Under the pieces are notes generated by a model. The model was not told the origin of the DNA and searched no databases. It saw nothing but the letters and a program-made list of their open reading frames with translations. A DNA stretch of 64,000 nucleotides, from positions 111,873-175,872 of IMG/VR virus record IMGVR_UViG_3300045988_078601; one strand, given 5' to 3'. Source of the stretch: a virus. This document shows, one piece after another, positions 22,493-58,022 of the stretch; the stretch's first letter is position 1, and each line of letters starts with the position of its first letter. Position numbers and translations under genes: made by a program.

Positions 22493-23545
22493 TTAACTAA
22501 AACGATATCCTTTACTGTAATAGTGTGCAGCTAATCTAAGCAAGAACTTAAACTCGTTCCATCCTTTAGTAAAATCTGCTTTGTTCAAGGTATAGATTTT
22601 AGTGTAATAGTTTGGAATAGTAGAAACTACTAAGCAATTAGATATTACGGTACAGTTATCCATACCATAATACTTCTTAGCAATTAGGGACATTAACCAG
22701 CTATAAAGGGCTAACTCTCTGTGATAATGAAATCTCTCAAAATTGTTTCCAAACTCAGACACTAGTTTTCCTATAGTCTTTAAGTCATTAACAATTACTG
22801 AGTTAGTTTCAGAATCCACAGTGTAATTATCCAATTTAGCTTTTATCCTGAAAATAAACGGCTCGTATCCGGGAACATGTACTTCTACATCCAGCAAGAT
22901 AGCTTGCTCATTCTCCGAAACTGGGTCAGATAGAATCCCAGTTGGGTGTAATATTCGCTGAACTATTTTGTTAGATTCTAAAGCACGGACACAGCACAGG
23001 ACTCTTTCTCGACTTTTAGCATCAAGGTAGATAGGAGTAGAATGAAGCCCTTTAGACTCGTACTCCCTTCTAGCTTCCCAATACGGTAAGCACTTTGTCA
23101 TCAGTGTATTAATCTTATCGTTGTCTAGCCTTCCCTTATAGTAGTCAATTTTTTCTGAAGCAGCATACAAAGCCTTTTCTCTAGCCTTTGGACTACTATT
23201 CTTATTAGAAAATACTCTATATAATTCATCTGCCATAAATCCAGCTTTAGCAGTAGGTCTATCAACACTAGTGCATAGATGGAATAACTCGGGCTGAAGA
23301 ACTAATTCATGAACAGCACTTCCAAATACTAAAGAATCACTATACTTATTATGCTTACCTAATCCCTCAAAGAAGGCTTGGGGATCATTGTCTTGGCTGG
23401 GATTTAACAACGACAGTCGAGAATTGCTAATATAGCCATTATACCTTTCACTGAAATACTCTGAGTCATCAATCTTTTGAAGTCTCAGAGTATCCATTAA
23501 AGGTATTAGCTGTATATTATCCAGTAATTCCTTTCCTATAGTCAT
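22493..23545 (-). CDS. hypothetical protein (possible nuclease fold)
   Basis: 350 aa; weak D..E.K-like segment LDVEVH...FRIKAK; not diagnostic. Confidence 0.3.
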   Translation of the reverse strand: MTIGKELLDNIQLIPLMDTLRLQKIDDSEYFSERYNGYISNSRLSLLNPSQDNDPQAFFEGLGKHNKYSDSLVFGSAVHELVLQPELFHLCTSVDRPTAKAGFMADELYRVFSNKNSSPKAREKALYAASEKIDYYKGRLDNDKINTLMTKCLPYWEARREYESKGLHSTPIYLDAKSRERVLCCVRALESNKIVQRILHPTGILSDPVSENEQAILLDVEVHVPGYEPFIFRIKAKLDNYTVDSETNSVIVNDLKTIGKLVSEFGNNFERFHYHRELALYSWLMSLIAKKYYGMDNCTVISNCLVVSTIPNYYTKIYTLNKADFTKGWNEFKFLLRLAAHYYSKGYRFS

Positions 23546-24062
23546 CCACTAAATCTTTAAAGTAATCAAACATAGTATGACGGAAGAGGTCATAACACTC
23601 TTCTATCTCATTTTTGTCTAAGCTAAATATTCGTCCAACTGGACCCCATCTCTGATTATGTTTACCATCCATTAACAAACATGGAATACCATTCAGGTTA
23701 AGGTCAATGAAGTTGGAAATGCTATCATCGACAAATACATCAACTCTCCCTTTAATTCTAGGAGCTTTACTTGAAGTTTGGCATAATACCTGATAAATTG
23801 GGGCTAACGGCAGTCCGTTCTTTTCCAGGAATTGCCTTGACCATAACTTAGAGTGAACTCGTTTAGTACAATATAAAGTTGGATTGAAGTTAGGACGATG
23901 GATTACTGGAAGGTTCATCCAAAAGTCTCTATCCTTTATAAGTACTCTACTAACATTCTTAGTTATTTCGCAATCTCTTTTAGGTATACCAAACCTATCA
24001 AGATAAGGACCTAAGAAGTCACATACAGTGTCATCTAGGTCTAAACCAATCTTTAATATCAT
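23517..24062 (-). CDS. 5'(3')-deoxyribonucleotidase-like HAD hydrolase
   Basis: N-terminal IGLDLDDTVCDF (DxDxT) as in NT5C-family deoxyribonucleotidases; 181 aa. Confidence 0.5.
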   Translation of the reverse strand: MILKIGLDLDDTVCDFLGPYLDRFGIPKRDCEITKNVSRVLIKDRDFWMNLPVIHRPNFNPTLYCTKRVHSKLWSRQFLEKNGLPLAPIYQVLCQTSSKAPRIKGRVDVFVDDSISNFIDLNLNGIPCLLMDGKHNQRWGPVGRIFSLDKNEIEECYDLFRHTMFDYFKDLVDDYRKGITG

Positions 24063-36105: not shown

Positions 36106-36555
36106 TTATTTTCTTTTAAGTCCAAATTTTGCCCATTGTAATACAAATCCCAGATGGCTCCAGAGGTCGTTTATCACTTCCTCCATAGCATACTTCTTAC
36201 CTAACTCCTCACTATAGTTTTTAGGATCAACGCAAGAACTGTGTCTTACAGTATCAAACCCAGTAAGAGTGTGAGCATTCACAACAGTAGTTTTATCTCC
36301 TACTGTCATTACGTCAACGTCAGTAATAAAGTTTTCAACATCTTCTTTAAGAATCTTAGTACCATCATTTTTCTCAGAAAGACGGTAAAATTCTTTGTTT
36401 GCAACATCGCTCGGAATCCACTCGCGTTTCCCATTAGGGTAAGTTACTCCAAACCCCATATCAGTAGACATACCATGAGCGGTATATCCAGCTTCAGCAG
36501 CCTGACCACAAGTCATAGGCTGAATATCAACCATTTCTACTTTTAGTGCTTTCAT
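36106..36555 (-). CDS. hypothetical protein
   Basis: 149-aa ORF. Confidence 0.3.
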   Translation of the reverse strand: MKALKVEMVDIQPMTCGQAAEAGYTAHGMSTDMGFGVTYPNGKREWIPSDVANKEFYRLSEKNDGTKILKEDVENFITDVDVMTVGDKTTVVNAHTLTGFDTVRHSSCVDPKNYSEELGKKYAMEEVINDLWSHLGFVLQWAKFGLKRK

Positions 36556-37391
36556 ACGATATCAATTTGAGTTACGTTTTCTGGAAGAGAAGTAGACTGT
36601 TTTTCAAACTCAGCTCTCCAATCCTTATAAGAGTTAGTAAACCACACGTGGTTAAAGTTCTTAGAAAGATTTTCAATACCTTTAGGGTTTACCATATGAC
36701 ATACAACAATGTTGACATCCGCCTTAGGATCAATTTCTCTTATAGCCTGAGCTAACCCAACAAACGTTCCTCCTCCATCACACAAATCATCTTCTATAAG
36801 AAGAGGTCTACCATCAATTACCTCTGGATTCTTAATCTTAATAGATTCAATCTTACCAGTAGTAACATTACGAACCTTTTCTCCAATTACTATACCTTCA
36901 GGCATATCATCAGCAGTGGCTCTTTCTACAGCACCTGCATCAGGCAGAACAATCTGATAATCATTGAATGTGGTATTTACCATATTATCAAGCCTATCAG
37001 GGTTTATCTGCGCGACACTTGTATACCTAAATAGGTCTAATGCTGTACTAGAGTGAGGACAAAACAGGTAAATCCCGTACGCTCCCAAATTATCAAGCAC
37101 ATGTACTACCATGTTTAGAGTATAGGGGCGATCAAAGCTCATTACTCTATCCATTCTCATACCCATGAGATAGTAAATAGAGATTGAAAATCTCATCCCA
37201 TGCCTTCTGAGAATGTCAGATACCTGCATAAGTATAAACAACTCTTCAGCACTAGTAATTCTACATCTTACGTTTATTTCGTCCTTATGGCTAAACTCAC
37301 CCAGAGTTATTTGTACTTCACCATCAGGGAATCTGGAAATGGAGTAATCAACATCACCCCTTTCCTTGTTGATTAGGTTTAGAATCTGCAT
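36552..37391 (-). CDS. divergent ribose-phosphate pyrophosphokinase (Prs-family); candidate ADP-ribose pyrophosphokinase Adps of a NARP1-type NAD+ reconstitution pathway
   Basis: RFPDGEVQITLGE (Prs N-domain) and PRPP-binding loop LLIEDDLCDGGGTF; 279 aa, shorter and diverged relative to canonical Prs; adjacent to a NAMPT homologue. Confidence 0.65.
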   Translation of the reverse strand: MQILNLINKERGDVDYSISRFPDGEVQITLGEFSHKDEINVRCRITSAEELFILMQVSDILRRHGMRFSISIYYLMGMRMDRVMSFDRPYTLNMVVHVLDNLGAYGIYLFCPHSSTALDLFRYTSVAQINPDRLDNMVNTTFNDYQIVLPDAGAVERATADDMPEGIVIGEKVRNVTTGKIESIKIKNPEVIDGRPLLIEDDLCDGGGTFVGLAQAIREIDPKADVNIVVCHMVNPKGIENLSKNFNHVWFTNSYKDWRAEFEKQSTSLPENVTQIDIV

Positions 37392-37785
37392 AATTCAAGA
37401 TACTTTTTAATATAAGATAGGCACTTTGCAAACCAGCCCTATCATCGAGAAGTAAACTAAAGAATGGTTTCTTAGTCCCTTTAAGAAGAGGACTTTCGTT
37501 AACATAATCTGGAGCAATACCAAAATGTTTACAATAGTCAATCTTCCACTTCAACCAGTTTTCATCTAGCTCTGAAGTGTAAAGACATAAGGTCCAACCT
37601 CTGTCCTTGCAATCTTTTAAAGCATCAATAATGTCTTTGTAGTTACCACCATTATTGTGCACATCGAAGATTGTATTGTCAAAGTCGAACCCTATGACTA
37701 AGCTACCATGAGTGTTCAGTTCTTTCTCTAAACGTCTTATACAATTATAGTCACAAAACGGATGATTAAAAGATTCGTTACTCAT
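37354..37785 (-). CDS. HAD-like hydrolase
   Basis: DxDxT motif LVIGFDFDNTIF; 143 aa. Confidence 0.45.
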   Translation of the reverse strand: MSNESFNHPFCDYNCIRRLEKELNTHGSLVIGFDFDNTIFDVHNNGGNYKDIIDALKDCKDRGWTLCLYTSELDENWLKWKIDYCKHFGIAPDYVNESPLLKGTKKPFFSLLLDDRAGLQSAYLILKSILNYADSKPNQQGKG

Positions 37786-39335
37786 TATAGCGTAGAGTTA
37801 ATACGTTCTCTAATTTCACTAAGAGTGTGATCTCGCATTAGTTTTCCGTTTACGAATACAGGCTCAAGAGCTCCAGCCATTTCCTCTTCTTCAGATACTC
37901 CATCGACTGCTACGTATTTACCATCCTTCTCATAGATAGCAATAAGACCTTTCAAAGAGTTCTTAGTACCGTCATCAGTCTTAGGTTGCTTAAATATTTC
38001 TACAAGCTGGCCATTTACTTTACAAGCTGTAGCCTTAACTGCGAAACCAAGAGAGTCTCTTGACTTGAACTGATAAGTAAACGAACCAACTCCAAGAACC
38101 AGATTACAAGCAGCCATATTAGCACCTTCAAGACGCATATAGATTTGCTTCTGACGTTCTAGAGTAATAGAGTCACCATAGAGCAGTCCAACTTTAGATG
38201 AAGGGTAACGGAAACCTTTCTCAGTAGTATTCCAGCCAAATGTCTTTCCGAGCATATAGTAAGCGCCATAATACTGTCCTTCTGATACCTCTACATACTC
38301 AGAATCAATATCAAATGGAGCATAGCAACAGTAGTAACGACCTTCTACAATGCGAGTATTAAAGTGTGGATTAGTTCTTAGTCCACAGATAATATCCACA
38401 GGGTCACCACTATCAGGACGGATAACAACACGACCATCGCGTGCCATAATCTCTTTCTTCAATTTAGGAAGAAAGTCTTCTACTACCTGCCAGAAATCCC
38501 AAGTATCTGATACTATACTTACGATTCCTTTAGGATATACGTCACAGATAAGACGGCGGAATGTTTCAATCTCCCCATCCTTGCCACCTGCACACATTAC
38601 ACTATGTTCAGTTGCGGGGACGGTTGCAGCCACAAGTTCCTTAGAAGAGTCTGCGTTGTAGTATTCTTCCAAGGCACGAATGGCCGGAATGGTTTCACTG
38701 CCACAGAACGAAGTCATATGAGCCATACCAGACATAATGGCAGCTTCGATACCAGCCATCCCCCTCATAGAGAAGTCATGACAAGAAAAGTCAATATTCA
38801 CATCAGTAGGGAAACCAGTACGGTCTGCATGACGTCTGAGTTCCTTCTTATACAGACGAGCAGATGTCGCAGATGTACACGGAAGCCACAAAGTACAACT
38901 TATAAGAGTCTCCAGATAGTTAGTAAGCCAAAAGAACTCCGGAAGTGTATTCTTAATAGTCATCATCGGAACCCTAATCGGACAGATTGAACCTTCAGGG
39001 AGAGCCTTGATTTCTATAGGCAAATAACCAAGATCATGCAAAGCTTCTATATGTTCAATACCGACATTTTCAATGCCGACAAAGTTATTTACTCTGTCAT
39101 AGAACTCTTTGACAGCTTGCTCTTTCGGAAGTTTAAAGAACTTCTTGTTGAACTGTTTAATCAAATACTCTTTTACCAAGTATTGAATACCAAACACTAC
39201 TGAACCTTCACTAGCTTCTGGAAAATACTTACAACTACGTGGAGTCCAATTTGAATAAACCATTTCAGTTCCTTTTGGATACTGAAAGTGATGACCGAGT
39301 TTATAACCATCGGTCAAAAGAATTGTTTCTTTCAT
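37785..39335 (-). CDS. nicotinamide phosphoribosyltransferase family protein (NAMPT/Namat-like)
   Basis: ILLTDGYKLGHHFQYP, LPIEIKALPEG, VIRPDSGDP closely match conserved NAMPT segments; 516 aa. Confidence 0.85.
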   Translation of the reverse strand: MKETILLTDGYKLGHHFQYPKGTEMVYSNWTPRSCKYFPEASEGSVVFGIQYLVKEYLIKQFNKKFFKLPKEQAVKEFYDRVNNFVGIENVGIEHIEALHDLGYLPIEIKALPEGSICPIRVPMMTIKNTLPEFFWLTNYLETLISCTLWLPCTSATSARLYKKELRRHADRTGFPTDVNIDFSCHDFSMRGMAGIEAAIMSGMAHMTSFCGSETIPAIRALEEYYNADSSKELVAATVPATEHSVMCAGGKDGEIETFRRLICDVYPKGIVSIVSDTWDFWQVVEDFLPKLKKEIMARDGRVVIRPDSGDPVDIICGLRTNPHFNTRIVEGRYYCCYAPFDIDSEYVEVSEGQYYGAYYMLGKTFGWNTTEKGFRYPSSKVGLLYGDSITLERQKQIYMRLEGANMAACNLVLGVGSFTYQFKSRDSLGFAVKATACKVNGQLVEIFKQPKTDDGTKNSLKGLIAIYEKDGKYVAVDGVSEEEEMAGALEPVFVNGKLMRDHTLSEIRERINSTL

Positions 39336-39336
39336 C

Positions 39337-39606
39337 TTATTTGTTATTACTAGAATTAGTTAATACTTCATAATTATGACATGCCCCTATAACTTCACCA
39401 TTAGGCATAGTTACCCAGACATAGCAATCGGTACCACCATAAGGCTCTAAACACCCTTTACTACCATCTGCATGATTTCCAAAATTAGCACAGGATTTAC
39501 ATGCATTTGTATATTCTTTAGGGTCTCCAGGAAATCCCATGCACCCTGTTACCTTTCCACCCTTCTTAAGAAGAGTTTCAATCGAATAATCTACTATATT
39601 ACTCAT
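39337..39606 (-). CDS. Cys-rich small protein
   Basis: 89 aa with 8 Cys. Confidence 0.25.
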   Translation of the reverse strand: MSNIVDYSIETLLKKGGKVTGCMGFPGDPKEYTNACKSCANFGNHADGSKGCLEPYGGTDCYVWVTMPNGEVIGACHNYEVLTNSSNNK

Positions 39607-39852
39607 AGAATAATCGTTAAATTCCTTTTACAACTATATAATATTTGTCCTTAGAGTTCTCAACATACGGATTTGGATAAACATGCTCTGCTACTATACA
39701 GGCTTGTATTCGCTCTATTCCAGGTTTCATCTCTGGATGAAGTCCAAAGTCACAGTATATAATAGAACTCGGAGTTGTGAAATTAATTTCATGAGTACAC
39801 AAAGCCCCAGGACCGTTATAATTTTCTATAAATTCGTAAAATCTTTCTTTAC

Positions 39853-40365
39853 TTACCTCCATAATATATCTGCAAATTCAATTGCTTCTTTTAAACTTTT
39901 TCCTGTGTGGAATCCATAAAAGATGTTAGATACATAAGACTTAGTATCCTCATGCATCTTTAGCTTAGAACTACATGAGTTCCACCAATCTATCTCGTTT
40001 CTGGGATTTCCTCCATAGGTTTTACAAGCAGCTAGGTAATCACACACTAACTCTAAAGCGTACTTTCTAGGCATTTTAGCTGGAATACCACCACTATCAA
40101 GGCTATGAATCCAATACTCATAATGATGTGGATTTCTTCCTCTATGATGCAGAAATGTCTCAGAATAACCATTTATTCTGGTTTCATTTTCTAGCGAACT
40201 TACTTTATCGTCCCAATATTTTATAGAACGACTAAACTCAGTTCTGCTAAATTTAGATAAGTCATGTGTTATTCCCTGCCAGTATAAACCTGCTTGGAAG
40301 CAATAATATGCTACCCAGAACTTATGGACCAAAATTCGTTTTAATAATTTTAATACTTTTATCAT
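39853..40365 (-). CDS. HD-domain phosphohydrolase-like protein
   Basis: GITHDLSKF (H..HD) and FLHHRGRNPHHYEYW histidine clusters; 170 aa. Confidence 0.4.
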   Translation of the reverse strand: MIKVLKLLKRILVHKFWVAYYCFQAGLYWQGITHDLSKFSRTEFSRSIKYWDDKVSSLENETRINGYSETFLHHRGRNPHHYEYWIHSLDSGGIPAKMPRKYALELVCDYLAACKTYGGNPRNEIDWWNSCSSKLKMHEDTKSYVSNIFYGFHTGKSLKEAIEFADILWR

Positions 40366-40367: not shown

Positions 40368-40781
40368 TTATATTGACTGAGAAGCCTTTACGGCTAACTT
40401 ATCGCAGTACTCATTCCACTTATCTCCGTCATGTCCTTTTACATGCTCAAAACGTATATCTGGACACAAAGTCTTTACTCGTTCATACTGAGTGTCAAAT
40501 TCTTGCCAAAGTTTTACGTTTTTCTTTCTCTTCCAACCTTTAGTAGCGCAACCAATCACGTACATGGAATCAGTAACAATAGTTAAGGAATCTATAGGAT
40601 TCTTAATTAATCGAAGCCCTATAATAACTGCTCCTAATTCCATCATGTTATTGGTAACGCTCTTATACATCTTAGAATACTCTAGTATTTTCTCCCCATT
40701 TTTTAAAAATACTAACCCTATTCCTCCCTGATCACGAGCAGAGGAATATGCACCATCAGTTATTAATGTATATTGCGTCAT
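40368..40781 (-). CDS. rnhA: ribonuclease H (RNase HI-like)
   Basis: TLITDGAY...ELGAVIIGL...IVTDSMYV...GHDGDKWNEYCDKLA catalytic DEDD pattern. Confidence 0.8.
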   Translation of the reverse strand: MTQYTLITDGAYSSARDQGGIGLVFLKNGEKILEYSKMYKSVTNNMMELGAVIIGLRLIKNPIDSLTIVTDSMYVIGCATKGWKRKKNVKLWQEFDTQYERVKTLCPDIRFEHVKGHDGDKWNEYCDKLAVKASQSI

Positions 40782-42531: not shown

Positions 42532-42725
42532 ATCAAACTTTATAAATTATGTGTAAATCTACTACTGAATCATCTTCTAAGATGACTGCAGCTTGTTTCT
42601 CAGTATATGGGTTAACAGTAAGGTCTTTTACAGTTGCTGTCTTAAACCCACATTTGAAGGGCTTTCCGCTATACTTGCGGACTTTGTCCCCAGGTTTTAA
42701 TGTGCTCATATTATAAGATATATAG

Positions 42726-42810
42726 TAGCGAGGACGGGGATCGAACCCGCACGGGCGCAATGCCCAAGGGATTTTAAGTCCCTCGTGTCTACCAATTCCA
42801 CCACCTCGCC
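42726..42810 (-). tRNA. tRNA-Leu (anticodon TAA), type II
   Basis: Minus-strand cloverleaf: AATTGGTAGA D-loop, anticodon loop CTTAAAA, long variable arm, T-loop GGTTCGATCC, acceptor GGCGAGG/CCTCGCT. Confidence 0.8.
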
Positions 42811-43064
42811 ATCCAAAGATAGTTATTTTCTCATTAATTTACTTATATAATTGGCATCGAAATACTTGGAGCAAATTATCTTCCAATCACTAATGTCGTA
42901 CTTATTAACAATTTCGTTAGGATGTGGAATAGTATAGTCCAACATATCGACTAGAGATTGAATATTTCTAACTGCCTGATTCTGCCGATGTCTAATAGCT
43001 TTATTATACCATCTACCAGTATGATCCTTTACAATAGCTTTTTTCTTTCTACTCCTGCTCATAA

Positions 43065-43571
43065 TTACCAATCAGTTGACAATGCAAGTTTAATATTTTC
43101 TTCACCTAATATTTCAATAGCCTGTTGTGCAAGTGAATAATCGCTGAAATATACGATACTACCAGGATTTGAGTTAAGAACAGTACCTACTCTTTCTATA
43201 GAAATAAGATCAGTAGCATCAATACAGATATAATATTTAGAATCATTCTCACTATTCCAATTAGGTTGCCAACCCTTATTAAGATATTTAGCAACATTCA
43301 TTAACTTAATAATAGCAAGAAGCTTTTCTACTTGTCTCTCAGAAGTACAATTATTTGCAATAGTTCTGTTATCATATGGAATCATAGCATCAAAATTATC
43401 CTCTCTTTTGCAAATCCATCCTGAATCACCCATATAATACATAGTCCTGTTCAAAAACAATTGTTTATATACTTCATCAAGAGAAAGTTTTTTCCTAAAT
43501 CTTATTTCTCCATCTTCTATATAGGGTTCCATTCCTTCAGGAACTCGTATTTTAACTCCGTTTATTTCCAT
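43065..43571 (-). CDS. hypothetical protein
   Basis: 168-aa ORF. Confidence 0.3.
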   Translation of the reverse strand: MEINGVKIRVPEGMEPYIEDGEIRFRKKLSLDEVYKQLFLNRTMYYMGDSGWICKREDNFDAMIPYDNRTIANNCTSERQVEKLLAIIKLMNVAKYLNKGWQPNWNSENDSKYYICIDATDLISIERVGTVLNSNPGSIVYFSDYSLAQQAIEILGEENIKLALSTDW

Positions 43572-43572
43572 A

Positions 43573-44013
43573 TTAATTACTATTAGTGTTCAAATAATTG
43601 TTTTCTGCAACCCAGCACAACATTCTGTATGCTGTTTCAGTTAAATCATCACTCATATATTCCCCATACCATACCTCAATTCCATATCCGTCAGTTCTTC
43701 CGTATAAGATTTTCTCTCTTTCATAATCAATACACAAATTAGCATAGTATCCAGATTGTTCATCGTATATGTATTTGGGTAACAGATTTAGAATATCATT
43801 TAAAATAAATGCTGGCATAGTTTCTACTATGTCCAAACCTGTATGCATCTGTTCTTTATGTGTACTTAAGAACCAATCCACCATAACTTTTTCTTTCTTA
43901 GTTGGAGGGCACGCAGGTCGCACAATTCTACACCACCACATACTTGCCTTACTTAAGTCAACACCTAATTCCTTTAGATGTTTCATTTGCTCTACAGATA
44001 GTGCTAATTCCAT
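43573..44013 (-). CDS. hypothetical protein (start trimmed to avoid tRNA)
   Basis: ORF 43573..44061; internal Met at 44013 avoids overlap with tRNA 44044..44118. Confidence 0.3.
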   Translation of the reverse strand: MELALSVEQMKHLKELGVDLSKASMWWCRIVRPACPPTKKEKVMVDWFLSTHKEQMHTGLDIVETMPAFILNDILNLLPKYIYDEQSGYYANLCIDYEREKILYGRTDGYGIEVWYGEYMSDDLTETAYRMLCWVAENNYLNTNSN

Positions 44014-44043
44014 AATTAATTTTTTTTTTATTGTGGCAACAGA

Positions 44044-44118
44044 CAGATTCGAACTGTCCACCTTAGGGTTATGATTCCTACGCTCTAACCAAACTGAGCT
44101 ATGTTGCCAAAAGAGGTA
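44044..44118 (-). tRNA. tRNA with anticodon CAT (Met or lysidine-Ile)
   Basis: Acceptor GGCAACA/TGTTGCC, D-arm GCTCAGTTTGGTTAGAGC, anticodon loop ATCATAA, T-arm GACAGTTCGAATCTGTC. Confidence 0.8.
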
Positions 44119-44147
44119 AGGTACGTAAGTACCTGTACCTCATATTT

Positions 44148-45269
44148 TTAGAGTGCTAAACCTCCTCTATACAAGGAAGGACGACTTTCAAGGTTAAGAA
44201 TCTTGAAGTAGTTCTTACCAGAATCGTTCTCCGTTATGATAATTCCATCTTTGTTAAGTGGCTCCACAACAGTTCCATAACCACCGAAAGACTCTCCAAC
44301 TTGCAAGAACTCAACTGACGTAGGAGAGTTAATCCTTCTAGTGTAGATGTCCAAATCATCCTCATCCAGAGTATACTCTTCGCCATCTGAATTCTTCTCT
44401 TTTGTGCCAACTTTAGCAAGAGTTTCCTTAAAGATGTCTACGGAGTTCTCCTCGTTATAGTAATAGCAAACCATCTTGGCGGTATAAGAATACTTAGCTT
44501 GCTCAACATTGATGAATTGCTTGAACTCAGAAACAGGACAGTTATGAATGTTAACTTCCTCTACAATACATTTCAAAATATCGATAGTTGATATAGCCAA
44601 GGAGTCAATAAATTCAAGGATTTCCTGAGTTCTACTCTTGTCCACCAAACAATCATCGAGATATTCCATAACGACTTCTGACGGAAGATTTCCAAAGGAT
44701 TTCTTATAACGAATTCTTGAGGGTCTTCCAATAAAGTTTTCATTGATATACAACTTGTTAGTTGTCAATATGAATACTCTACGATGTTGGCTATTGAAGA
44801 CTCCGTCCATGATAGACAACAACTCCAAATCGTGGCCCTTATCAGTGTTAAAATTCTTTTCAAACTCGTCAAAGAACAAGACGCACGGACAATTTATCTT
44901 GGAAATAAAGTCTGCAAGACCGGGATAAGGAGCATTGATAATAATTACAGGAAGCTTCGTTTCATTCGCAATAATCTTAGCAGTAATAGTCTTACCTGTG
45001 CCCTTGACACCATTAAACAGAATTCCTAAATTTCTTGAGGTATTCTCGAAAGTCTTCATTATATGCTTAATGAGTTTCGATTCCATACCATAAACCTTGA
45101 AATCAAAATGAAACTCATCTGCAAAGTCTTCCAAGAATATTTCATTACGATCAGAATCGTAGTTCATTGTATACACTCTTTTGCTAAGAGCGTCTAATAC
45201 TTGGATATTGCTATCCACTTGCTTAAGTACTCTACCGTTCCTAAGCCAAACAATACTTGGATTTTCCAT
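44148..45269 (-). CDS. classical AAA+ ATPase
   Basis: Walker A GVKGTGKT, Walker B VLFFDEFE, sensor-1 ILTTN, Arg finger RPSR; 373 aa. Confidence 0.75.
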   Translation of the reverse strand: MENPSIVWLRNGRVLKQVDSNIQVLDALSKRVYTMNYDSDRNEIFLEDFADEFHFDFKVYGMESKLIKHIMKTFENTSRNLGILFNGVKGTGKTITAKIIANETKLPVIIINAPYPGLADFISKINCPCVLFFDEFEKNFNTDKGHDLELLSIMDGVFNSQHRRVFILTTNKLYINENFIGRPSRIRYKKSFGNLPSEVVMEYLDDCLVDKSRTQEILEFIDSLAISTIDILKCIVEEVNIHNCPVSEFKQFINVEQAKYSYTAKMVCYYYNEENSVDIFKETLAKVGTKEKNSDGEEYTLDEDDLDIYTRRINSPTSVEFLQVGESFGGYGTVVEPLNKDGIIITENDSGKNYFKILNLESRPSLYRGGLAL

Positions 45270-45270
45270 A

Positions 45271-46218
45271 TTATAAATCTAAAAATGCTTTAACGTATTT
45301 ATTATTAGTGTCGAGGTTAGACCTCATTCCATTCTGAAGGATTACAAGATCATCTGCATTCATACCCTTAATAAGACAGATTCTTAATATGTCCTTCAGG
45401 GGCATACTGCCATTTAAAACAGTTATAGAACCCAGACCTCTATAAGAGAAGATTGACTTAATGCCAGCATCTTTCGTAAGTGCTCTAAACGTATGACAGA
45501 ATTCAAGAAGTTCTTTATCTCCTTTAGTTATGTTCTCCTCTATTCTTGGAGAGTAAGAGACAGTAACAATATTGAATCGGTCAAGAGAGGCTCCGTCAAG
45601 ACAATATCTTCCAGAATAGACATGGTCTGCACCAGTTCCAAAGGTATTTCCAGCTGCGATGAGTCTAAAGTCCTTATGAGCTTCTATCTTCCCAGTAGGG
45701 AAGTCAAAATATCTATTAGCAATAGCAGCATTAAGAATAACTAAGACTTCTGGAATAGAAGCATCTAATTCATCTAGGAAGAATAATCCTCCGTTCTTGA
45801 ATGCTTTATAAAATTGAGTTTCATGGTATATACCATTTGCATCAATAAAGCCAGTAAGCTTATATTCCTGAGTTATAGCATTAGTGAAATAAAATTCGAG
45901 TCCCAATGCCTCAGCTATCTGCTTACAGATAACATTCTTTCCAGTTCCAGCCTCACCACTTAAATATACAGGTAAGTCTAGAGAGACTAATTTAAGAACA
46001 GTTTTGAATTTCTCATGAAAAATTCCTGTAACTTTATGCGTAATTGGGCCTTGTTTTACCTCTACCACTTGGGGAAGGGGTCCATAGGTTTCCAAAATAT
46101 GCTTTTTCACTACAGGAACAACCTCATTATACACTTTGTCAACACACGTAGATATTACGGTGCTGTTAACTGCCGAGTCTATTAATTCGACCAGTTCTTT
46201 TACTCTATCTTCTTGCAT
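45271..46218 (-). CDS. AAA_5/MoxR-like ATPase
   Basis: Walker A LSGEAGTGKN, Walker B LFFLDELD, IAAGNT sensor; 315 aa. Confidence 0.7.
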   Translation of the reverse strand: MQEDRVKELVELIDSAVNSTVISTCVDKVYNEVVPVVKKHILETYGPLPQVVEVKQGPITHKVTGIFHEKFKTVLKLVSLDLPVYLSGEAGTGKNVICKQIAEALGLEFYFTNAITQEYKLTGFIDANGIYHETQFYKAFKNGGLFFLDELDASIPEVLVILNAAIANRYFDFPTGKIEAHKDFRLIAAGNTFGTGADHVYSGRYCLDGASLDRFNIVTVSYSPRIEENITKGDKELLEFCHTFRALTKDAGIKSIFSYRGLGSITVLNGSMPLKDILRICLIKGMNADDLVILQNGMRSNLDTNNKYVKAFLDL

Positions 46219-47365
46219 TTTCTTTTATATATGCTACTATTTGTTTAACATTAAAATCCATTTTTCCACGAATTAACTCTAGAGTGAGCACAACCGTATT
46301 AGGTTTATTGCCTAGCATCTCCTGGGATAGCATATGAGAAGGTGAACTACCATATCCAGAAGCAAAGTAATCGTTCTTAAGACCTGGTACCGTTTCTAGG
46401 AACCTAAATCCAATACGTCTTAGCATAGACGGATGAGCTATAGGGAAACATAGCTTTTTCAAATCCAATCTATCCTTATAATCCTTTAATTGCACAGTAC
46501 CTAGAACAGCTTCTCCTCTCGCATAACCAGAATACATAGAGCAGCTTAAGCTAATAGATACTCCAGAATTTTCAAGCAATTGTATTGCTGAAAGCATGGA
46601 GATACCTGCCTTAACGAAGTCCTCCCTAGCTACATGCCAAGGACCTTGAGGAAAATAAATTATATCAACGGTTTTTACTTTTTGAATTTCTCTAGTACGG
46701 TCATCCATAGAATGTGGTAACCCCATCAAATACTTTGGTACATTTGGAGAACTACCTACTACAGAGGACAGTGGTTTACTTTTAGTGTCAAGAAATAATT
46801 CTTTGAACTTGTTTACATTCTCAGCTATTCCTTGCTTAATTTTAGGCAATATACTAACATACCCATTTCTGAATAGATTAACTGCCTCATCATAACTACT
46901 AGTTCCGCTAAACTCTGATCTTTCAGAATTAGAGCTAGTGGATTCTCTCATAGCTTGATTATTGTCTCTATGATTCAGACATGATAACAGTTCATCTATT
47001 GAGTGGAAATGTTCGTGTATAATCTTTTTGAATTTACTAGTGTTATAAACTCTAATAAATCCTTGTGTCCCAGCTTTGGAGAAAGTATTACCTAAAAGTT
47101 TGGAATTTATTTCTTCAGGAACTACCTCTTCGTCCTCATCTTCCTTGTCTTTTGTATCGGAAACTCTAGGAGTCTCAGGAATAGGGATTGGCTCTGGAAC
47201 TACTTCGGGCTTAGGTTCTGGAGTAGGTTCTGGAATAGGTTCAGGTTCTTCAGGTTCTTCAGGTTTCTCCTCCTTTTCTTCTACGGTAACATTTTTCTCT
47301 CTTTGGAATAGCCTTCTTAGCCACTTCCAAAAAGTTTTTAAAAAAAGAATCTTCACTTTAATCAT
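46205..47365 (-). CDS. hypothetical protein with Pro/Glu-rich low-complexity N-terminal linker
   Basis: EEKEEKPEEPEEPEPIPEPTPEPKPEVVPEP repeat region then ~280-aa globular part; overlaps AAA_5 gene by 14 nt. Confidence 0.35.
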   Translation of the reverse strand: MIKVKILFLKTFWKWLRRLFQREKNVTVEEKEEKPEEPEEPEPIPEPTPEPKPEVVPEPIPIPETPRVSDTKDKEDEDEEVVPEEINSKLLGNTFSKAGTQGFIRVYNTSKFKKIIHEHFHSIDELLSCLNHRDNNQAMRESTSSNSERSEFSGTSSYDEAVNLFRNGYVSILPKIKQGIAENVNKFKELFLDTKSKPLSSVVGSSPNVPKYLMGLPHSMDDRTREIQKVKTVDIIYFPQGPWHVAREDFVKAGISMLSAIQLLENSGVSISLSCSMYSGYARGEAVLGTVQLKDYKDRLDLKKLCFPIAHPSMLRRIGFRFLETVPGLKNDYFASGYGSSPSHMLSQEMLGNKPNTVVLTLELIRGKMDFNVKQIVAYIKENARR

Positions 47366-47389
47366 TTATCTAAATTTTCTAAAGGTTAG

Positions 47390-47471
47390 TAGGGTAGGTG
47401 GGACTCGAACCCACACGTCCGAAGACGACAGATCCTAAATCTGTTGCGGCTGCCAATTACGCCACTACCCC
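47390..47471 (-). tRNA. tRNA-Leu (anticodon TAG), type II
   Basis: Anticodon stem-loop ACAGA-TTTAGGA-TCTGT, variable arm CGTCTTCGGACG, T-arm GTGGGTTCGAGTCCCAC, acceptor GGGGTAG/CTACCCT. Confidence 0.8.
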
Positions 47472-47646
47472 ATAAATCAGAACACTTTACTAGTTTTAGT
47501 ATGATAGTCCTCCGAAACTAGTACAGAGCAAGCCACTTTATTTACCATCAAAAGAGCAGTAGGGATACATTAACCATCAGTATCTTTGGACTAGACCAGC
47601 TAGCTTCTAATTAATAATAATTGTAATAATATGCATAAATAAAATT

Positions 47647-47667
47647 TTTGCTGTGAGTGTTCTTATT
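47647..47667 (-). promoter_or_regulatory. conserved motif copy 1 (plus-strand TTTGCTGTGAGTGTTCTTATT)
   Basis: One of 5 related copies; ~175 nt upstream (minus sense) of tRNA-Leu(TAG). Confidence 0.3.
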
Positions 47668-47680
47668 AATATGATACAAT

Positions 47681-47968
47681 TCACGTATTAAATCCGTAAC
47701 CGAAGCCAAGTTTAGTAACAATATGCCTTCCAACTTGACCTATTTTCTTTCGTAGTCTTGATACAGTAGTATCAATAGCTCTTAAGGATACCTCAGTATC
47801 CCACACACTTTGCATAATCTCTTTTCTGGTGTAGATTTTATTTCTATGACTTAGAAGAAAGACTAGCAAATTATACTCAGTCTTAGTAAGACTAACTTCC
47901 TTGCCATCTAAGTAACATTCCTTCTTGTCAAGGTCTATTATTAGGGTTTCAAATTCAATTCTATTCAT
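47681..47968 (-). CDS. winged-helix DNA-binding protein (OmpR/PhoB trans_reg_C-like)
   Basis: LTKTEYNLLVFLLSHRNKIYTRKEIMQSVWD...TVSRLRKKIG matches the trans_reg_C fold pattern; no receiver domain. Confidence 0.65.
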   Translation of the reverse strand: MNRIEFETLIIDLDKKECYLDGKEVSLTKTEYNLLVFLLSHRNKIYTRKEIMQSVWDTEVSLRAIDTTVSRLRKKIGQVGRHIVTKLGFGYGFNT

Positions 47969-47983
47969 ATTTTTAATATTTTG

Positions 47984-48055
47984 TCTCTCCTTCCAGATTC
48001 GAACTGGAATTATCTGTTTAGAAGACAGAGGTTCTATCCATTGAACTAAGGAGAG
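47984..48055 (-). tRNA. tRNA-Arg (anticodon TCT)
   Basis: Acceptor CTCTCCT/AGGAGAG, anticodon loop CTTCTAA, T-arm TCCAGTTCGAATCTGGA. Confidence 0.8.
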
Positions 48056-48143
48056 GAAAAGGACAATTTAGTTTTTCAGGTCGTTTCGGACTCTCTGCGA
48101 AAAGTTTTATAGTGCTATACGCTTAACCACTCGTCCTTTTAGC

Positions 48144-48218
48144 AGAACACTTACTCTTAGGATTCGAACCTTACCTCTCAGTTAGGAACTGAGTGTGCTA
48201 CCATTACACCACATGTTC
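48144..48218 (-). tRNA. tRNA-like gene, possible tRNA-Arg (anticodon CCT) with irregular T-arm/acceptor geometry
   Basis: D-loop TAATGGTAG, anticodon stem-loop CTCAG-TTCCTAA-CTGAG, T-loop TTCGAATCC, but 3 extra nt between T-arm and acceptor and a G:A mismatch in acceptor. Confidence 0.4.
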
Positions 48219-48248
48219 TATAAAATGGCGAACAATAGAAAGTAAAGA

Positions 48249-48270
48249 TTTTGCTGTATGTGTTCTTGTA
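48249..48270 (-). promoter_or_regulatory. conserved motif copy 2 (TTTTGCTGTATGTGTTCTTGTA)
   Basis: ~30 nt upstream (minus sense) of the tRNA-Arg(CCT)-like gene. Confidence 0.3.
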
Positions 48271-48337
48271 GCTTGTAAATATAAGTACTCTTTCTAACTT
48301 GTCAAAGTTAAAAAGTGTTAAGCTTATGTCTTAAAGA

Positions 48338-50263
48338 TTACTTCACTTCTTCAAAGTGTTCCTCACCTTCAGAAACTTCCGGTTGTTTAGGCTTGTTCTC
48401 GATTTGTTTTCCTCCAAACATATCTTTTACAGTGTCTGCAATTGGGATAGAACGGAGCAAATCAAGAGCAGGATTCAAGTTTTCTGCAGTCTTAGCCATA
48501 AAGTTACCGGCAGTATTTTCGTTACCATATACAGTAACCTGTCCAAGATGGATGTGTTCAAACATCTTAGCAGAAGCATCAGCAATACCGGATAACTGGT
48601 CAACTGTCTTATACTGCACAATCATCTGAGGTGTCATACCAGAATCAATCATCTTCTCAATAGCCAATGCAGGGGCCATCTCAATAGCCTGTACTTTATC
48701 AGCTTCAGCCATCAAAGATGCTCTCTTACCTTCAGCCTCAGCCAGAAGTTTCTTACGAGTACCCTCGGCTTCTGCTTCCAACTGCATCTTTGTAGCATTT
48801 GCTTTTGCTTCAGCCTCCTTAGTAATCTCAGCTGCCTTAGCTTCTGCCTCAAGAATAGCTTTCTGCTTGATTGCTTCAGCTTCAATTGTTACTTTCTCCT
48901 TCTGCTTCTGAGCAGGAACAATCACCTCTGCAGTCAATTTAGCTTCAGCAGCCAATGCTGCAGCCTCATTTACTTCAACTTGTCTTTCCTGCTTAGTCTT
49001 CTCAATAGCCATCTGAGCTTCAACTTTAGAAGTACCTGCAATCTTCTCAGCTTCTGCCTCAGCTTGAGCTGCCTCTCCTCTTGCTTTAGATACTTCAATA
49101 GTAGCTTTCTGTTCAGCTACCCCAGCCGCCTTATCAGCTTCTGCAGCTCTCTGACGCTTCTGTGATTCATATTCAGCTACTTTAGCTTGCTGTTCATTAA
49201 CAGCTTTCTGAGTTTCAGCCTCTTGTTCTTGCTCAGCCTTAGCCATACGAATCTGTTTCTGAGCTTCAGCTTCTGCTTGAGCTGACAATGCCTCAGCTTC
49301 TGACTTAGCAACAGATGCTACAGCCTCAGCTTTACGAGCTGCTGTTGCTGACTCTGCTGCAGCCTGAGCCTTAGCAATGTTAGCTTCCTTTTCAGCCTGT
49401 TGTTCAGCGACTCCGGACTCCTTAACCTTTTCAGCCTCAGCCAATTTAATTTGCTTCTCCTGCTCAATCTCAGCTACACGAACTTCTTGTTCCTGCTTGG
49501 TCTGAGCTACCTGAGTTGCACGAGCTTTTTCTGCATCTGCTACAGCAATTTCTTTCTCCTTAATAGTCTCTGCAATTCGGATCTGTCCTTTCTTTTCCTC
49601 TTCAGCAATATCAGCCTCTGCTTGAGCTTGTGCTTCAGTAGCGGCTTTCTTACCAAGATTCTTGATATAGTTAGCATCATCCGAAATGTCAGCATTATTA
49701 ATATTGATAATACTGAAACCAATCTTATTCAATTCAGTTTCAATATTCTCTTTTGCTTTACCTAAGAACTTAACACGGTCAGAGTTAATTTCCTCAATGG
49801 TCATAGTAGCCATCAAACTACGCATTTCACCAATAAGGATATCCTTAATCTGTTCCGATATTTCGTTAGGGGAAGCAGTCAAGAAACGACTGGCAGCATT
49901 TTGCATAAGTTCATCAGTAGTACCAATACCAGTAGTTAGAGTTACAGGAATCGTTACTTTAATCATCTGACTTGATACACCAATAACCGATGTTTGAATT
50001 TGAATCGGTTTAAGAGACATTTTTCGCCAGTCTTGAATTATAGGGAATACAAAAGTACCACCTCCATGAATAATCTTAGAAGGAAGAACAACTGTTTCAT
50101 TCTTTCCTGTAGTTGGATTAGTAACAGTTTTCTTACCTGCTTTACCAAATACTACCAAGATTTCATCACTTGCGCAACGACGATAACGTGACATCAAACC
50201 AATTAAGGTCAAAATTACAAGGATTGCTACAATCCCTGCAATAATCAAACTAGAAGTAATCAT
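48338..50263 (-). CDS. SPFH/band-7 (flotillin/YqiK-like) membrane protein with long Ala/Glu-rich coiled coil
   Basis: N-terminal TM IIAGIVAILVILTLIGL, band-7 core, then ~250 aa of AEAEAQ/EKAR heptad-like repeats; 641 aa. Confidence 0.8.
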   Translation of the reverse strand: MITSSLIIAGIVAILVILTLIGLMSRYRRCASDEILVVFGKAGKKTVTNPTTGKNETVVLPSKIIHGGGTFVFPIIQDWRKMSLKPIQIQTSVIGVSSQMIKVTIPVTLTTGIGTTDELMQNAASRFLTASPNEISEQIKDILIGEMRSLMATMTIEEINSDRVKFLGKAKENIETELNKIGFSIININNADISDDANYIKNLGKKAATEAQAQAEADIAEEEKKGQIRIAETIKEKEIAVADAEKARATQVAQTKQEQEVRVAEIEQEKQIKLAEAEKVKESGVAEQQAEKEANIAKAQAAAESATAARKAEAVASVAKSEAEALSAQAEAEAQKQIRMAKAEQEQEAETQKAVNEQQAKVAEYESQKRQRAAEADKAAGVAEQKATIEVSKARGEAAQAEAEAEKIAGTSKVEAQMAIEKTKQERQVEVNEAAALAAEAKLTAEVIVPAQKQKEKVTIEAEAIKQKAILEAEAKAAEITKEAEAKANATKMQLEAEAEGTRKKLLAEAEGKRASLMAEADKVQAIEMAPALAIEKMIDSGMTPQMIVQYKTVDQLSGIADASAKMFEHIHLGQVTVYGNENTAGNFMAKTAENLNPALDLLRSIPIADTVKDMFGGKQIENKPKQPEVSEGEEHFEEVK

Positions 50264-50274
50264 TATAAAATAAA

Positions 50275-50775
50275 TTATTTAGAAATGTAATAAATTCCGT
50301 CTTTATAAGACTTAATAGTTAATATGTCTCCCACCTGAACTTCAGTGTCAGCTTTACATGTAATTTCTGTGTAGTTGGGAGCATCGACTTTACATACACA
50401 GTTTCCGTTAGGTAACGGAACATAGACTATAACAACCTCTCCTACTAAATCAGTCTTGGATTTTGTAGTAGGCTCAGAATTAAACTTCATGCACAGTTTA
50501 TACACGAAGTATAAAATGACCATAAAGATAATTCCTACACCACATGCAAAAGAAATAGTCAATGCTGTGACCTTTCCAGAAAGCATCAACCATCCTGAGA
50601 AACCCATGGCAAAATGAACCAGACCTTTAAAGGATAGGAGGTCGTTAACACTGAAATCTGCTTCACCATCAAAATCTACATCCAAATCGGTTTCTAGGAA
50701 ACCGAAATTGGATAAGATAAATTGAATAATGAAGATACTATAGGATATAATACCTAAGATATAATACCATTCCAT
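50275..50775 (-). CDS. NfeD-like membrane protein (SPFH partner)
   Basis: Multi-TM N-terminus plus C-terminal beta-rich soluble domain; immediately upstream of the SPFH gene as in nfeD-SPFH operons. Confidence 0.6.
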   Translation of the reverse strand: MEWYYILGIISYSIFIIQFILSNFGFLETDLDVDFDGEADFSVNDLLSFKGLVHFAMGFSGWLMLSGKVTALTISFACGVGIIFMVILYFVYKLCMKFNSEPTTKSKTDLVGEVVIVYVPLPNGNCVCKVDAPNYTEITCKADTEVQVGDILTIKSYKDGIYYISK

Positions 50776-50782
50776 GTTAGTG

Positions 50783-52009
50783 TTATTCTAAATGAAACAA
50801 TGAATTTTCCAGTACAACGTCTCTTCCTATATCATCCCCATTATGTATCTGGTTAATAGTGAGAACTTGAAGTTTACGGACTCCCTCCATGACTTGCTTA
50901 GAAACATCTTCTGGATATACAGTTGTTATGACATGCTCTAGGCAAATTCCCCTATAGCAGCGTAAATTCTGTTCTTTCTCTGCAAATGCTAAGATCGCAT
51001 TGAAAATTGAGATCCATGTCAAGACCTTTTCAAAGTTGTAAGTCGGTCTAAGGAGTCTGAACTCTATAGTTTTGTTGACGTTATAGCATACAGCATTGAC
51101 AAAGTTTACCCAATAATACCGAGTAGGAATCCGCCATTTGGCCTCACGTCTTATGTCATTAGGATGAGGCTGAGTAAGACTACCATAAAATCTTCTTCCT
51201 ACAAGATATTCATAAAGCTGGTCGAAGTCCTTAAATGATGGAAGCTTCATACAATAATCCTTGCCGTTCGCTTTGTAATGCGCACTATGAAAGGTTTCTG
51301 GTGGAACCAATCCTCCTATCTCAGATTCAAGTCCCTTACATAACAAGTATGCTCTATACAAACTTTTAGGTTCCAAGTTGAAACCTCCAAAGTGCATATG
51401 TAGAGAACATTCCTTATTAAAGGCAGTATATTTCCGTAATGTCCCTAACTGCTGACGCAATAAGGACAAACCAGAATTACCTTCCATAACCACAGTAGAA
51501 TACTCTAGACCAGAAATTGAACCGTCTCGCAATGGAATTAGTCCATCTCTGAAGCAGAGATCTTCTGGAACATAACCCATAGAGGTTTCAAACTCTAGAC
51601 CAAAGGAGTATTTCAAGTGCTCAGCAACTTTAAATGTTTCTGGATGTACTATTTGTTGCTTTCCCTCGAAGATGTTAAAGCTTTCTACAGCTTCATATCT
51701 CCTTTCAAAGTGATATGGGAAACTTCCAAATCCCATTTGATACTGCTCTATTGGCAATAAATTAGAAGGGAAATCGACAACAGAAACATAACAGCCTCTG
51801 TAGACACTATATACCAGGACATCCTTTAATAGTTCTTTATCACCCTCAAAATATCTTAATTCTCCCTCAACGTAAGCTAAGAATCTGATGATGGATTCCG
51901 ATCTACTACTGTATCCAAGTACTAGAGTCCCAGGAAGGTGTTGTACAGCCACTAATGCACAATTTTGTCTGGAGATTTTTCTTCCAGTTATTTCATCAAT
52001 GACTTGCAT
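50783..52009 (-). CDS. carboxylate-amine ligase (GCS2/YbdK-like glutamine-synthetase-fold amidoligase)
   Basis: FGLEFETSMG and SLHMHFGG match YbdK motifs GIELEMQ and GQHVHVG; 408 aa. Confidence 0.6.
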   Translation of the reverse strand: MQVIDEITGRKISRQNCALVAVQHLPGTLVLGYSSRSESIIRFLAYVEGELRYFEGDKELLKDVLVYSVYRGCYVSVVDFPSNLLPIEQYQMGFGSFPYHFERRYEAVESFNIFEGKQQIVHPETFKVAEHLKYSFGLEFETSMGYVPEDLCFRDGLIPLRDGSISGLEYSTVVMEGNSGLSLLRQQLGTLRKYTAFNKECSLHMHFGGFNLEPKSLYRAYLLCKGLESEIGGLVPPETFHSAHYKANGKDYCMKLPSFKDFDQLYEYLVGRRFYGSLTQPHPNDIRREAKWRIPTRYYWVNFVNAVCYNVNKTIEFRLLRPTYNFEKVLTWISIFNAILAFAEKEQNLRCYRGICLEHVITTVYPEDVSKQVMEGVRKLQVLTINQIHNGDDIGRDVVLENSLFHLE

Positions 52010-53376: not shown

Positions 53377-53387
53377 ATAGTTTATCC

Positions 53388-55544: not shown

Positions 55545-55547
55545 TAC

Positions 55548-55581
55548 AAAAAAAAAACGCCGCCCTTAGAAAGAGCGGCGC
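55548..55581 (-). terminator. rho-independent terminator downstream of 55597..56658
   Basis: Minus-strand hairpin CGCCGCTC-TTTCTAA-GGGCGGCG followed by T10. Confidence 0.6.
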
Positions 55582-55596
55582 ACGGTTAGTGAGACA

Positions 55597-56658: not shown

Positions 56659-56721
56659 AAATTAAACAAAAATTTAAAAGTTATATACTTCCCTTTCGGG
56701 TTTATTTAATCCAAAATCAGT

Positions 56722-57581: not shown

Positions 57582-57602
57582 ATTTATTTAATATTAAAGT
57601 TG

Positions 57603-57673: not shown

Positions 57674-57681
57674 AAAATTAG

Positions 57682-57967: not shown

Positions 57968-58022
57968 TTTAGATAGGGCACACTATGCCCTATCAATAAT
58001 TTACCATCTTCGACAGGTACCC

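Follow-up and report, generated by a model that had tools for sequence, protein, structure and literature searches.

A candidate three-gene NARP1 operon with a HAD-type phosphatase gene in a large gut phage

We analysed a 64,000-nucleotide stretch of viral DNA (IMG/VR record IMGVR_UViG_3300045988_078601, positions 111,873 to 175,872; hereafter the window) and found in it a Namat-HAD-Adps gene set that resembles NARP1, a phage system for rebuilding nicotinamide adenine dinucleotide (NAD+). The reading we favour, with somewhat better than even confidence, is a three-gene NARP1 operon whose HAD protein would dephosphorylate ADP-ribose (ADPR)-1''-phosphate to feed Adps, as an analogue of the phosphatase Adpp. 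In the proposed scheme, set in a Caudoviricetes gut phage of ~176 kb, Adps would use ATP to pyrophosphorylate ADPR, giving ADPR-pyrophosphate (ADPR-PP), with AMP as by-product, and Namat would combine ADPR-PP with nicotinamide to give NAD+ and pyrophosphate (PPi). The regenerated NAD+ would neutralise NAD+-depleting defences of the SIR2, TIR and SEFIR types. The HAD protein would act on ADPR-1''-phosphate, which RES-domain NAD+ phosphorylases such as aRES produce; by stripping off the 1''-phosphate it would return ADPR to Adps. It would thereby serve as a non-homologous analogue of the Macro-domain phosphatase Adpp found in the NARP1-AP version of the system, and a HAD-equipped NARP1 would also counter RES-type NAD+ phosphorolysis.

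The operon and its two predicted NARP1 enzymes

The core of the operon consists of three minus-strand genes, listed in order of transcription.

37785..39335 (-): Namat-type NAMPT homologue, 516 aa; first gene of the core
37354..37785 (-): predicted minimal, cap-less HAD phosphatase, 143 aa; middle gene
36552..37391 (-): Adps-type Prs homologue, 279 aa; last gene of the core

Namat and HAD overlap by 1 nt (TAATG), HAD and Adps by 38 nt, and Adps and the next gene by 4 nt (ATGA); from an RNase H gene (40368-40781) through a gp49-like gene (36106-36555), all gaps are at most ~10 nt. Because the HAD gene overlaps both of its neighbours, it sits as an accessory gene within the Adps/Namat operon, as the accessory gene of NARP1-AP does. 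A first-pass annotation of this DNA had reported a Prs-like protein (279 aa) and a NAMPT-like protein (516 aa) one gene apart and proposed that they represent Adps and Namat. The open reading frames (ORFs) are as it described and family scans agree with it; both proteins fit published sequence criteria that separate them from housekeeping Prs and Nampt, and they share a single overlapping operon. The comparison it had suggested for 36552..37391, with Adps and with housekeeping Prs, came out in the same direction: residues of ICP1 Adps are largely kept, the TIGR01251 score falls under its cutoff and the regulatory ends are absent.

The Namat-type protein matches PF04095, PF18127, NF006629 (529 bits) and phrog_448 (E=2e-188). 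Compared with PDB entries, it scores 506 bits (E=1e-150) against 9W5X and 9W5W, both of which are SpβL1 Namat, versus ~211 bits against human NAMPT, a 2.4-fold higher score to Namat than to Nampt. Namat enzymes are defined by a two-part adenine 'selectivity clamp' (SCH and SCL), of which SCL is a loop with Arg, or with Lys/Tyr and then a stacking residue (PMC12774641). SCH in the window protein reads G417-S-F-T-Y-Q-F-K-S-R-D427, compared with GSFTYQYNTRD in SpβL1 and GGALLQKVDRD in Xanthomonas (Xcc) Nampt. Serine stands at the position of the TRD threonine, the SCH signature is recognisable and both aromatic positions predicted to stack on adenine are present. Within SCL, K36-Y37 aligns with SpβL1 R40 and may likewise stack; K-Y also occurs in ICP1 and Eyuki. 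In the catalytic core F188, R191, His244, R306 and D308 are identical and SpβL1 D215 is replaced by E214, the phosphate-binding glycines are conserved, and the protein carries a ~27-residue insertion relative to SpβL1 at about residues 319-358. Judged by sequence, its assignment as a Namat-type enzyme is supported.

Two side observations concern this family. Namat is split by insertions of 150-1200 bp in several relatives (our loci L086, L091, L092, L094-L096 and L117, and GenBank OQ198718.1), at sites that recur around residues 254-277 and 428-434, which suggests introns, homing-endonuclease insertions or inteins; the window Namat is uninterrupted. Separately, D215 of SpβL1 is the Asp that contacts nicotinamide, and a Glu at this position might tune base specificity.

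The Adps-type protein matches the phage family phrog_619 (E=2e-54) and reaches 73.9 bits for TIGR01251 against a cutoff of 113, with all Prs equivalogs far under threshold. Its overall identity is low (ICP1 Adps, 26%; E. coli Prs, 23%), and a sequence search against PDB structures matched canonical Prs alone; the assignment therefore rests on diagnostic features, the phage-family profile and operon linkage to Namat. We aligned the protein with ICP1 Adps (from GenBank), four other NARP1-linked homologues and E. coli Prs, using the residues described for ICP1 Adps (PMC13586617). Kept positions, with ICP1 numbering in brackets, are F21 (F18), R79 (R87), H113 (H121), D151 (D161), D201/D202 (D212/D213) and F210 (F221). 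Six of the seven ADPR-acceptor residues of ICP1 are retained, as is the lysine of the catalytic beta-hairpin (K172-V-R174, corresponding to ICP1 K185-I-R187). The PP loop reads C204-DGGG-T209, against CDGAAS (C215-DGAAS-220) in ICP1 and IDTGGT in E. coli Prs; together with F210 it resembles Adps over the IDTGGT-L of Prs, although residues 218-220 are closer to Prs and F223 is replaced by G212. Like ICP1 Adps, the protein is without the N-terminal helix of Prs and its C-terminal alpha11-alpha12 regulatory module (~30 residues), and at 279 aa it is shorter than E. coli Prs (315 aa). An Adps-type identity is supported by this comparison.

These results bear on whether the operon might instead perform classical salvage, with Prs making phosphoribosyl pyrophosphate (PRPP) and a true Nampt making nicotinamide mononucleotide (NMN), in a NARP2-like or auxiliary metabolic role. 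In its favour, the proteins are members of the Prs and Nampt superfamilies, and in vitro some PRPP-to-NMN activity persists in Namat enzymes (PMC12774641). Set against this are the clamp signature, the 2.4-fold score difference and a Prs homologue that falls under the housekeeping threshold, has no regulatory modules and carries an Adps-like PP loop. A NARP2 partner is also missing from the larger ORFs of the window (64 kb of the ~176-kb genome): no CTP_transf_like or NUDIX domain, and hence no candidate NMN adenylyltransferase or Nudix protein, was found among ORFs of at least 130 aa and those around the module. We regard salvage as scarcely credible.

The HAD protein and its linkage to Adps and Namat

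The middle protein carries HAD motifs I (D34-x-D36-x-T38), II (T70), III (K106) and IV (D114-D115), and these residues are conserved in 42-43 of 43 aligned homologues (and are essentially invariant in a second alignment of 39 sequences). An AlphaFold2 model (pLDDT 91.5) predicts a minimal Rossmannoid core with no cap, so the active site would be open. Cap-less HAD enzymes generally accept bulky substrates. Foldseek searches with this model returned Bacteroides thetaiotaomicron BT_0820 (2obb, E=5.7e-4), the phosphatase domain of T4 PNKP and AfhF of phage HY126. AfhF, the nearest of these neighbours to have been characterised, is a phosphatase that depends on Mg2+ and turns arabinofuranose-1,5-bisphosphate into the 1-phosphate (PMC13326640). 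In chemical terms, the terminal ribose of ADPR-1''-phosphate resembles a pentose 1,5-bisphosphate, the substrate class of AfhF. Profile searches were less informative. The protein has no Pfam match even at E<=10, its profile finds nothing significant among PDB sequences, and it falls outside the named subfamilies HAD-IIIC, HAD_PNKP, GmhB and NT5C, with TIGR01681 at 20.6 bits against a cutoff of 35.75. A Macro domain was sought in it and gave no match, the fold being HAD. The PHROG label for this gene, 'phosphoheptose isomerase', is unsupported by fold or motif evidence.

Homologues of the HAD gene adjoin Adps and/or Namat in at least seven gene orders, spread over unrelated phage groups and the chromosomes of Paenibacillus and Cohnella. 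The phage and metagenomic arrangements are as follows.

Namat-HAD-Adps: crAss-like cr126_1 and cr111_1, Bacteroides phage DAC15, and ~45 of 75 IMG/VR loci
Namat-HAD-DUF5662-Adps: L007
Adps-HAD-(2 kb)-Namat: L044
Adps-Namat-HAD: Bacillus phage Eyuki (Herelleviridae)
nicotinamidase-Adps-Namat-HAD: Phass-1 (L108, 911-4426)
Adps-HAD-Namat: T5-like Vibrio phage VPT02
HAD-Namat: Tenacibaculum phage PTm1
HAD-Adps, with Namat 225 kb off: Lak megaphage

In total, HAD lies within 600 bp of Adps or Namat in 54 of 84 loci, and the unlinked loci fall mainly into one derived clade in a radical-SAM context, with megaphage LR756501 and three Lak-like loci that end at contig ends making up the rest. Linkage is complete among bacterial genome records, where all 14 HAD relatives adjoin Adps and Namat. 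Five of these are metagenome bins with phage-like context and nine are Paenibacillus or Cohnella genomes; HAD is immediately upstream of Adps-Namat in all nine, and genes for NrtR and an ADP-ribosylglycohydrolase lie alongside in eight (the exception being P. pini). NrtR is an ADPR-responsive regulator of NAD metabolism. The Paenibacillaceae operon has the appearance of a housekeeping pathway for ADPR recycling, and phage NARP1 may have come from it. None of HAD, NrtR or ADP-ribosylglycohydrolase is mentioned in the paper that validated Paenibacillus NARP1 (PMC12774641).

On the evidence of gene order, HAD is a conserved third component of this NARP1 type and no incidental insertion. The first-pass annotation was thus right about the position of a HAD-like hydrolase between the pair; its description of the gene as inserted there understates it.

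Some loci have features of their own. Six Cohnella species share the order HAD-Adps-Namat-NrtR-ADP-ribosylglycohydrolase (exemplified by Cohnella ginsengisoli, L123, 4983-9445), and Paenibacillus ferrarius and P. alba have NrtR-HAD-Adps-Namat followed at a distance by the glycohydrolase; further loci of this chromosomal group are L121, L122 and L124-L129. The nicotinamidase directly upstream of Adps in Phass-1 is odd, as it would consume the nicotinamide needed by Namat. In the nearest relative of the window operon, L116 (CALUTN010000183.1), Namat is 94%, HAD 88% and Adps 54% identical to window positions 36552-39335. This mosaic implies a putative recombination breakpoint at the HAD/Adps boundary.

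Database labels raise the question of whether HAD has anything to do with NARP1, or is a generic nucleotidase or PNKP-like end-repair phosphatase that travels with the cassette. An nr entry identical to the protein is labelled 'nucleotidase 5'-nucleotidase [Caudoviricetes sp.]', homologues are annotated as polynucleotide kinase or hydrolase in some phage records, the fold neighbours include T4 PNKP and one clade occurs in a radical-SAM context. We nevertheless consider this explanation very unlikely, as adjacency maintained through at least seven gene orders, in phages and bacterial chromosomes, would be unexpected by chance. A role as the phage's own PNKP phosphatase or general nucleotidase was rejected for a further reason: the window already encodes a bona fide, stand-alone HAD_PNKP phosphatase (10337-10768, E=4.5e-22) and another DxDxT protein (23517-24062), and the NARP1-linked HAD is similar to neither, nor to any Pfam model.

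A slot shared with Macro-domain phosphatases

RES-domain defences cleave NAD+ to nicotinamide and ADPR-1''-phosphate, which Adps cannot use, and some phages add the Macro-domain phosphatase Adpp to NARP1, giving NARP1-AP (10.64898/2026.01.28.702374). We found that relatives of the window phage carry such a gene where the window carries HAD. In MT835492, the closest GenBank relative of the window Adps, a Macro gene lies immediately upstream of Adps, and 18 relatives in IMG/VR have Macro at this position in a sister-clade arrangement. The full order DUF5662-Namat-Macro-Adps-RNase H is seen in 14 of the 18, with the rest ending at contig ends or missing one flank. Proteins of this clade are ~76% (Namat), ~54% (Adps) and ~72% (DUF5662) identical to those of the window, and its Macro protein matches the validated Adpp of Vibrio phage Gary over its full length (38% identity, E=9e-28). 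A tree of Namat sequences places the Macro clade within a set of HAD-type lineages made up of the window, L007, the L018 group and crAss-like phages. HAD and Macro occur together in no locus, and tblastn of HAD-type loci with Macro queries was empty. In L175 and L179 the slot itself is empty, with Namat followed directly by Adps across a 27-nt gap. A single phage lineage therefore displays three slot states (HAD, Macro and empty), a pattern consistent with an accessory gene of host-dependent value.

Decayed modules were also encountered. L085 (MT836666), L181 and L194 show either an internal deletion in HAD or a longer one that begins in the 3' part of Namat and takes in HAD. In MT835492 (L002), 27 residues of DUF5662 and 29 C-terminal residues of Namat are left upstream of an intact Macro-Adps pair; the Namat remnant was seen in 14.8 kb around its Adps, and the record is absent among the top Namat matches.

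Host range offers a further comparison. aRES is most frequent in Bacillota (10.4%) and Bacteroidota (4.7%) (10.64898/2026.01.28.702374). These phyla supply the hosts of the two groups, Bacillus phages and Bacteroidota phages, to which most HAD-type phages here belong. Searching the preprint's Macro-neighbour table by name for Eyuki, BPS10C, cr126, DAC15 or any 'Bacillus phage' found none of them.

Because HAD shares its slot with an Adpp homologue, its substrate would, by analogy, be ADPR-1''-phosphate or another phospho-ADPR. A NARP1 operon whose HAD acts on something else is rather unlikely in our estimate. Candidate substrates or tasks include 2'-phospho-ADPR or NADP+ (which would enlarge the pool of substrate once NADP has been cleaved), species derived from ADPR cyclic phosphate, removal of PPi or AMP to draw the reactions onward, and the product of a still-unknown NAD+-cleaving defence. 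Linkage to Adps and Namat, and to NrtR/ADP-ribosylglycohydrolase operons, ties HAD to ADPR/NAD chemistry and leaves the substrate unfixed; RES enzymes cleave NADP+ too (PMC11535050), and the fold neighbours vary in substrate. The in-situ swap for an Adpp homologue in a nested sister clade, with the two genes mutually exclusive, is however explained most simply if both do the same job, and host pyrophosphatase and nucleotidases would probably make PPi or AMP removal a poor selective reason. In a more specific and unlikely variant, HAD would process a different phosphorylated NAD+ breakdown product (2'-phospho-ADPR, say, or a derivative of ADPR cyclic phosphate) that arises from an as yet undescribed NAD+-degrading defence common in Bacteroidota and Bacillota, and phage NARP1 would have been captured from an ancestral Paenibacillaceae HAD-Adps-Namat-NrtR-glycohydrolase pathway. 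If this were true, HAD-type NARP1 in crAss-like, Lak and Bacillus phages would be a sign that immune systems cleave NAD(P)+ in a further, new way.

Several observations weigh against ADPR-1''-phosphate dephosphorylation within NARP1, the role that we favour for HAD. Slot-sharing argues for a related role and is no proof of an identical substrate; the Namat tree is a neighbour-joining tree without support values; and HAD is dispensable or decayed in some relatives (L085, L181, L194 and L175/L179). The match between aRES and host phyla is no more than a correlation. Both NARP1 enzymes also depart from their references. SpβL1 D215 corresponds to E214 in the window Namat (the carboxylate is kept, and 39 of 44 related Namats, those of the Macro-type clade among them, have the same change), and two adenine-contact positions of ICP1 differ in the window Adps, M84 (F92) and G212 (F223), the first of which is also M or I in crAss-like relatives. 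Outside NARP1, a derived HAD clade of ~27 loci (L050-L081; for example L060, 5247-7342) lies between two radical-SAM-like ORFs with CxxxCxxC motifs and has no NARP1 within 6 kb; at least one additional pathway has thus taken up the HAD family. Megaphage LR756501 likewise carries the HAD gene with no NARP1 nearby. Finally, gene identities, diagnostic residues, intact HAD motifs, linkage and slot-sharing are read directly from the sequences, whereas the activities of Namat, Adps and HAD are inferred, the HAD substrate above all.

Genomic surroundings, known systems and significance

Other features of the window are given below.

39853-40365 (-): DUF5662 protein, upstream of the module
39337-39606 (-) and 39617-39862 (-): two small ORFs between DUF5662 and Namat, with no family matches
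4617-5084, 7236-8606, 10337-10768 and 11376-12593 (-): dispersed end-repair kit of P-loop AAA_33 kinase, RNA ligase, HAD_PNKP phosphatase and ATP-dependent DNA ligase
5357-6211: sigma-70-like factor
6208-6876: VWA-domain ORF
15964-18159: NrdD (anaerobic ribonucleotide reductase)
42725-61578: 11 tRNA genes
44148-47365 and 50783-54179 (-): MoxR/CobS-like ATPase pair, then an ORF matching solely a PHROG of unknown function; amidoligase/glutamine-amidotransferase-like/COOH-NH2 ligase cluster

The neighbours that the first-pass annotation had called an HD-domain protein and RNase H do adjoin the module; since the module is on the minus strand, they lie upstream rather than downstream as it had stated. 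The former is a DUF5662 protein with invariant residues H14, H34-D35, H73, H74, H80, H81, H87, D90 and D109, and its fold weakly resembles that of HD-GYP phosphodiesterases. An HD-domain phosphohydrolase, with a metal site of the form H...HD...H...H...D, is one candidate identity. Its profile finds nothing significant among PDB sequences, and a literature search for the term DUF5662 returned no paper. Many relatives have this gene directly upstream of Namat, and L007 has it within the module. We considered it as a fourth NARP1 component and rejected this: the close relatives L130 and L131 (80-81% identical) keep RNase H and DUF5662 without NARP1, so DUF5662 belongs to the backbone synteny. The two small ORFs are absent from most relatives, where DUF5662 abuts Namat; the one of 89 aa is rich in Cys, and L116 conserves it at 74%.

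The window corresponds to the arm of a large phage genome that serves replication and nucleotide metabolism, encoding DNA polymerase A, helicases, a primase, Sak4, exonucleases, NrdD, DNA and RNA ligases and the sigma-70-like factor. NrdD, a GC content of 36% and affinity to crAss-like and Lak genes indicate that the host is probably an anaerobic gut Bacteroidota.

Among described systems, NARP1 of SpβL1 and ICP1 (bioRxiv 10.1101/2024.02.11.579819; PMC12774641; PMC13586617) is built from the same two enzyme families in one operon. The window shares with it the Namat clamp and catalytic core, the acceptor and catalytic residues of Adps and the truncated Adps architecture, and differs in having HAD between the enzymes and Namat before Adps. 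NARP1-AP of Vibrio phage Gary (bioRxiv 10.64898/2026.01.28.702374) also has three genes with a phosphatase-type member, and a sister clade of the window's phage lineage has the Adpp homologue in the identical slot; the accessory proteins differ, however, in fold, HAD in the window and Macro/Poa1p-like in Adpp, and are not homologous. The hosts differ as well: HAD-type lineages here mainly infect Bacteroidota and Bacillota, VPT02 being the one Vibrio phage, whereas the Macro rows consulted in the published table name Pseudomonas, Vibrio, Acinetobacter and Pseudoalteromonas phages. RyDEP-NARP1 (bioRxiv 10.64898/2026.05.28.727677) likewise places within a NARP1 locus an accessory that turns an ADPR derivative into ADPR for Adps, but RyDEP is an RyR-domain glycosidase acting on cyclic ADPR signals, unlike the phosphomonoesterase-type HAD predicted here. 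Bacterial NARP1, characterised as pfAdps/pfNamat of Paenibacillus foliorum, comprises homologous Adps-Namat pairs in Paenibacillaceae chromosomes; it is described with two genes (PMC12774641), whereas the Paenibacillus and Cohnella loci analysed here add HAD upstream. AfhF, BT_0820 and the T4 PNKP phosphatase domain share the minimal cap-less HAD fold class and DxDxT machinery with the window HAD but are 13-22% identical to it and have other genomic contexts and presumed substrates. NARP2 (Nampt with the NMNAT/Nudix protein NatV; Vibrio phage KVP40) also restores NAD+ with a NAMPT-family enzyme, but needs an NMN adenylyltransferase and uses PRPP, whereas the window homologue has the Namat clamp. 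PADLOC models gave no match.

NARP1 and NARP1-AP are already known; a HAD-type accessory appears to be new, as the literature searched contained nothing relevant on a HAD partner of NARP1. The authors of the aRES preprint, who call Macro 'one of the most common' associated genes (10.64898/2026.01.28.702374), may be aware of others.

Among known phage countermeasures to NAD+-depleting immunity, NARP1 is the most common. Its weak point is RES-type cleavage, which leaves ADPR-1''-phosphate, and a Macro-domain phosphatase is the sole reported repair, the examples consulted being phages of Pseudomonadota. If our reading is correct, two unrelated phosphatase families would occupy one slot as convergent solutions to one problem, and the arms race between aRES and NARP1 would take in crAss-like phages and Lak megaphages as well as Bacillus phages. 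Annotation pipelines would also gain a marker for a gene that at present goes by 'phosphoheptose isomerase', 'nucleotidase' or 'hypothetical', and phage NARP1 would be connected with an NrtR-associated ADPR-salvage operon on Paenibacillaceae chromosomes. The slot's three natural states, HAD, Macro and empty, provide ready-made experimental comparisons.

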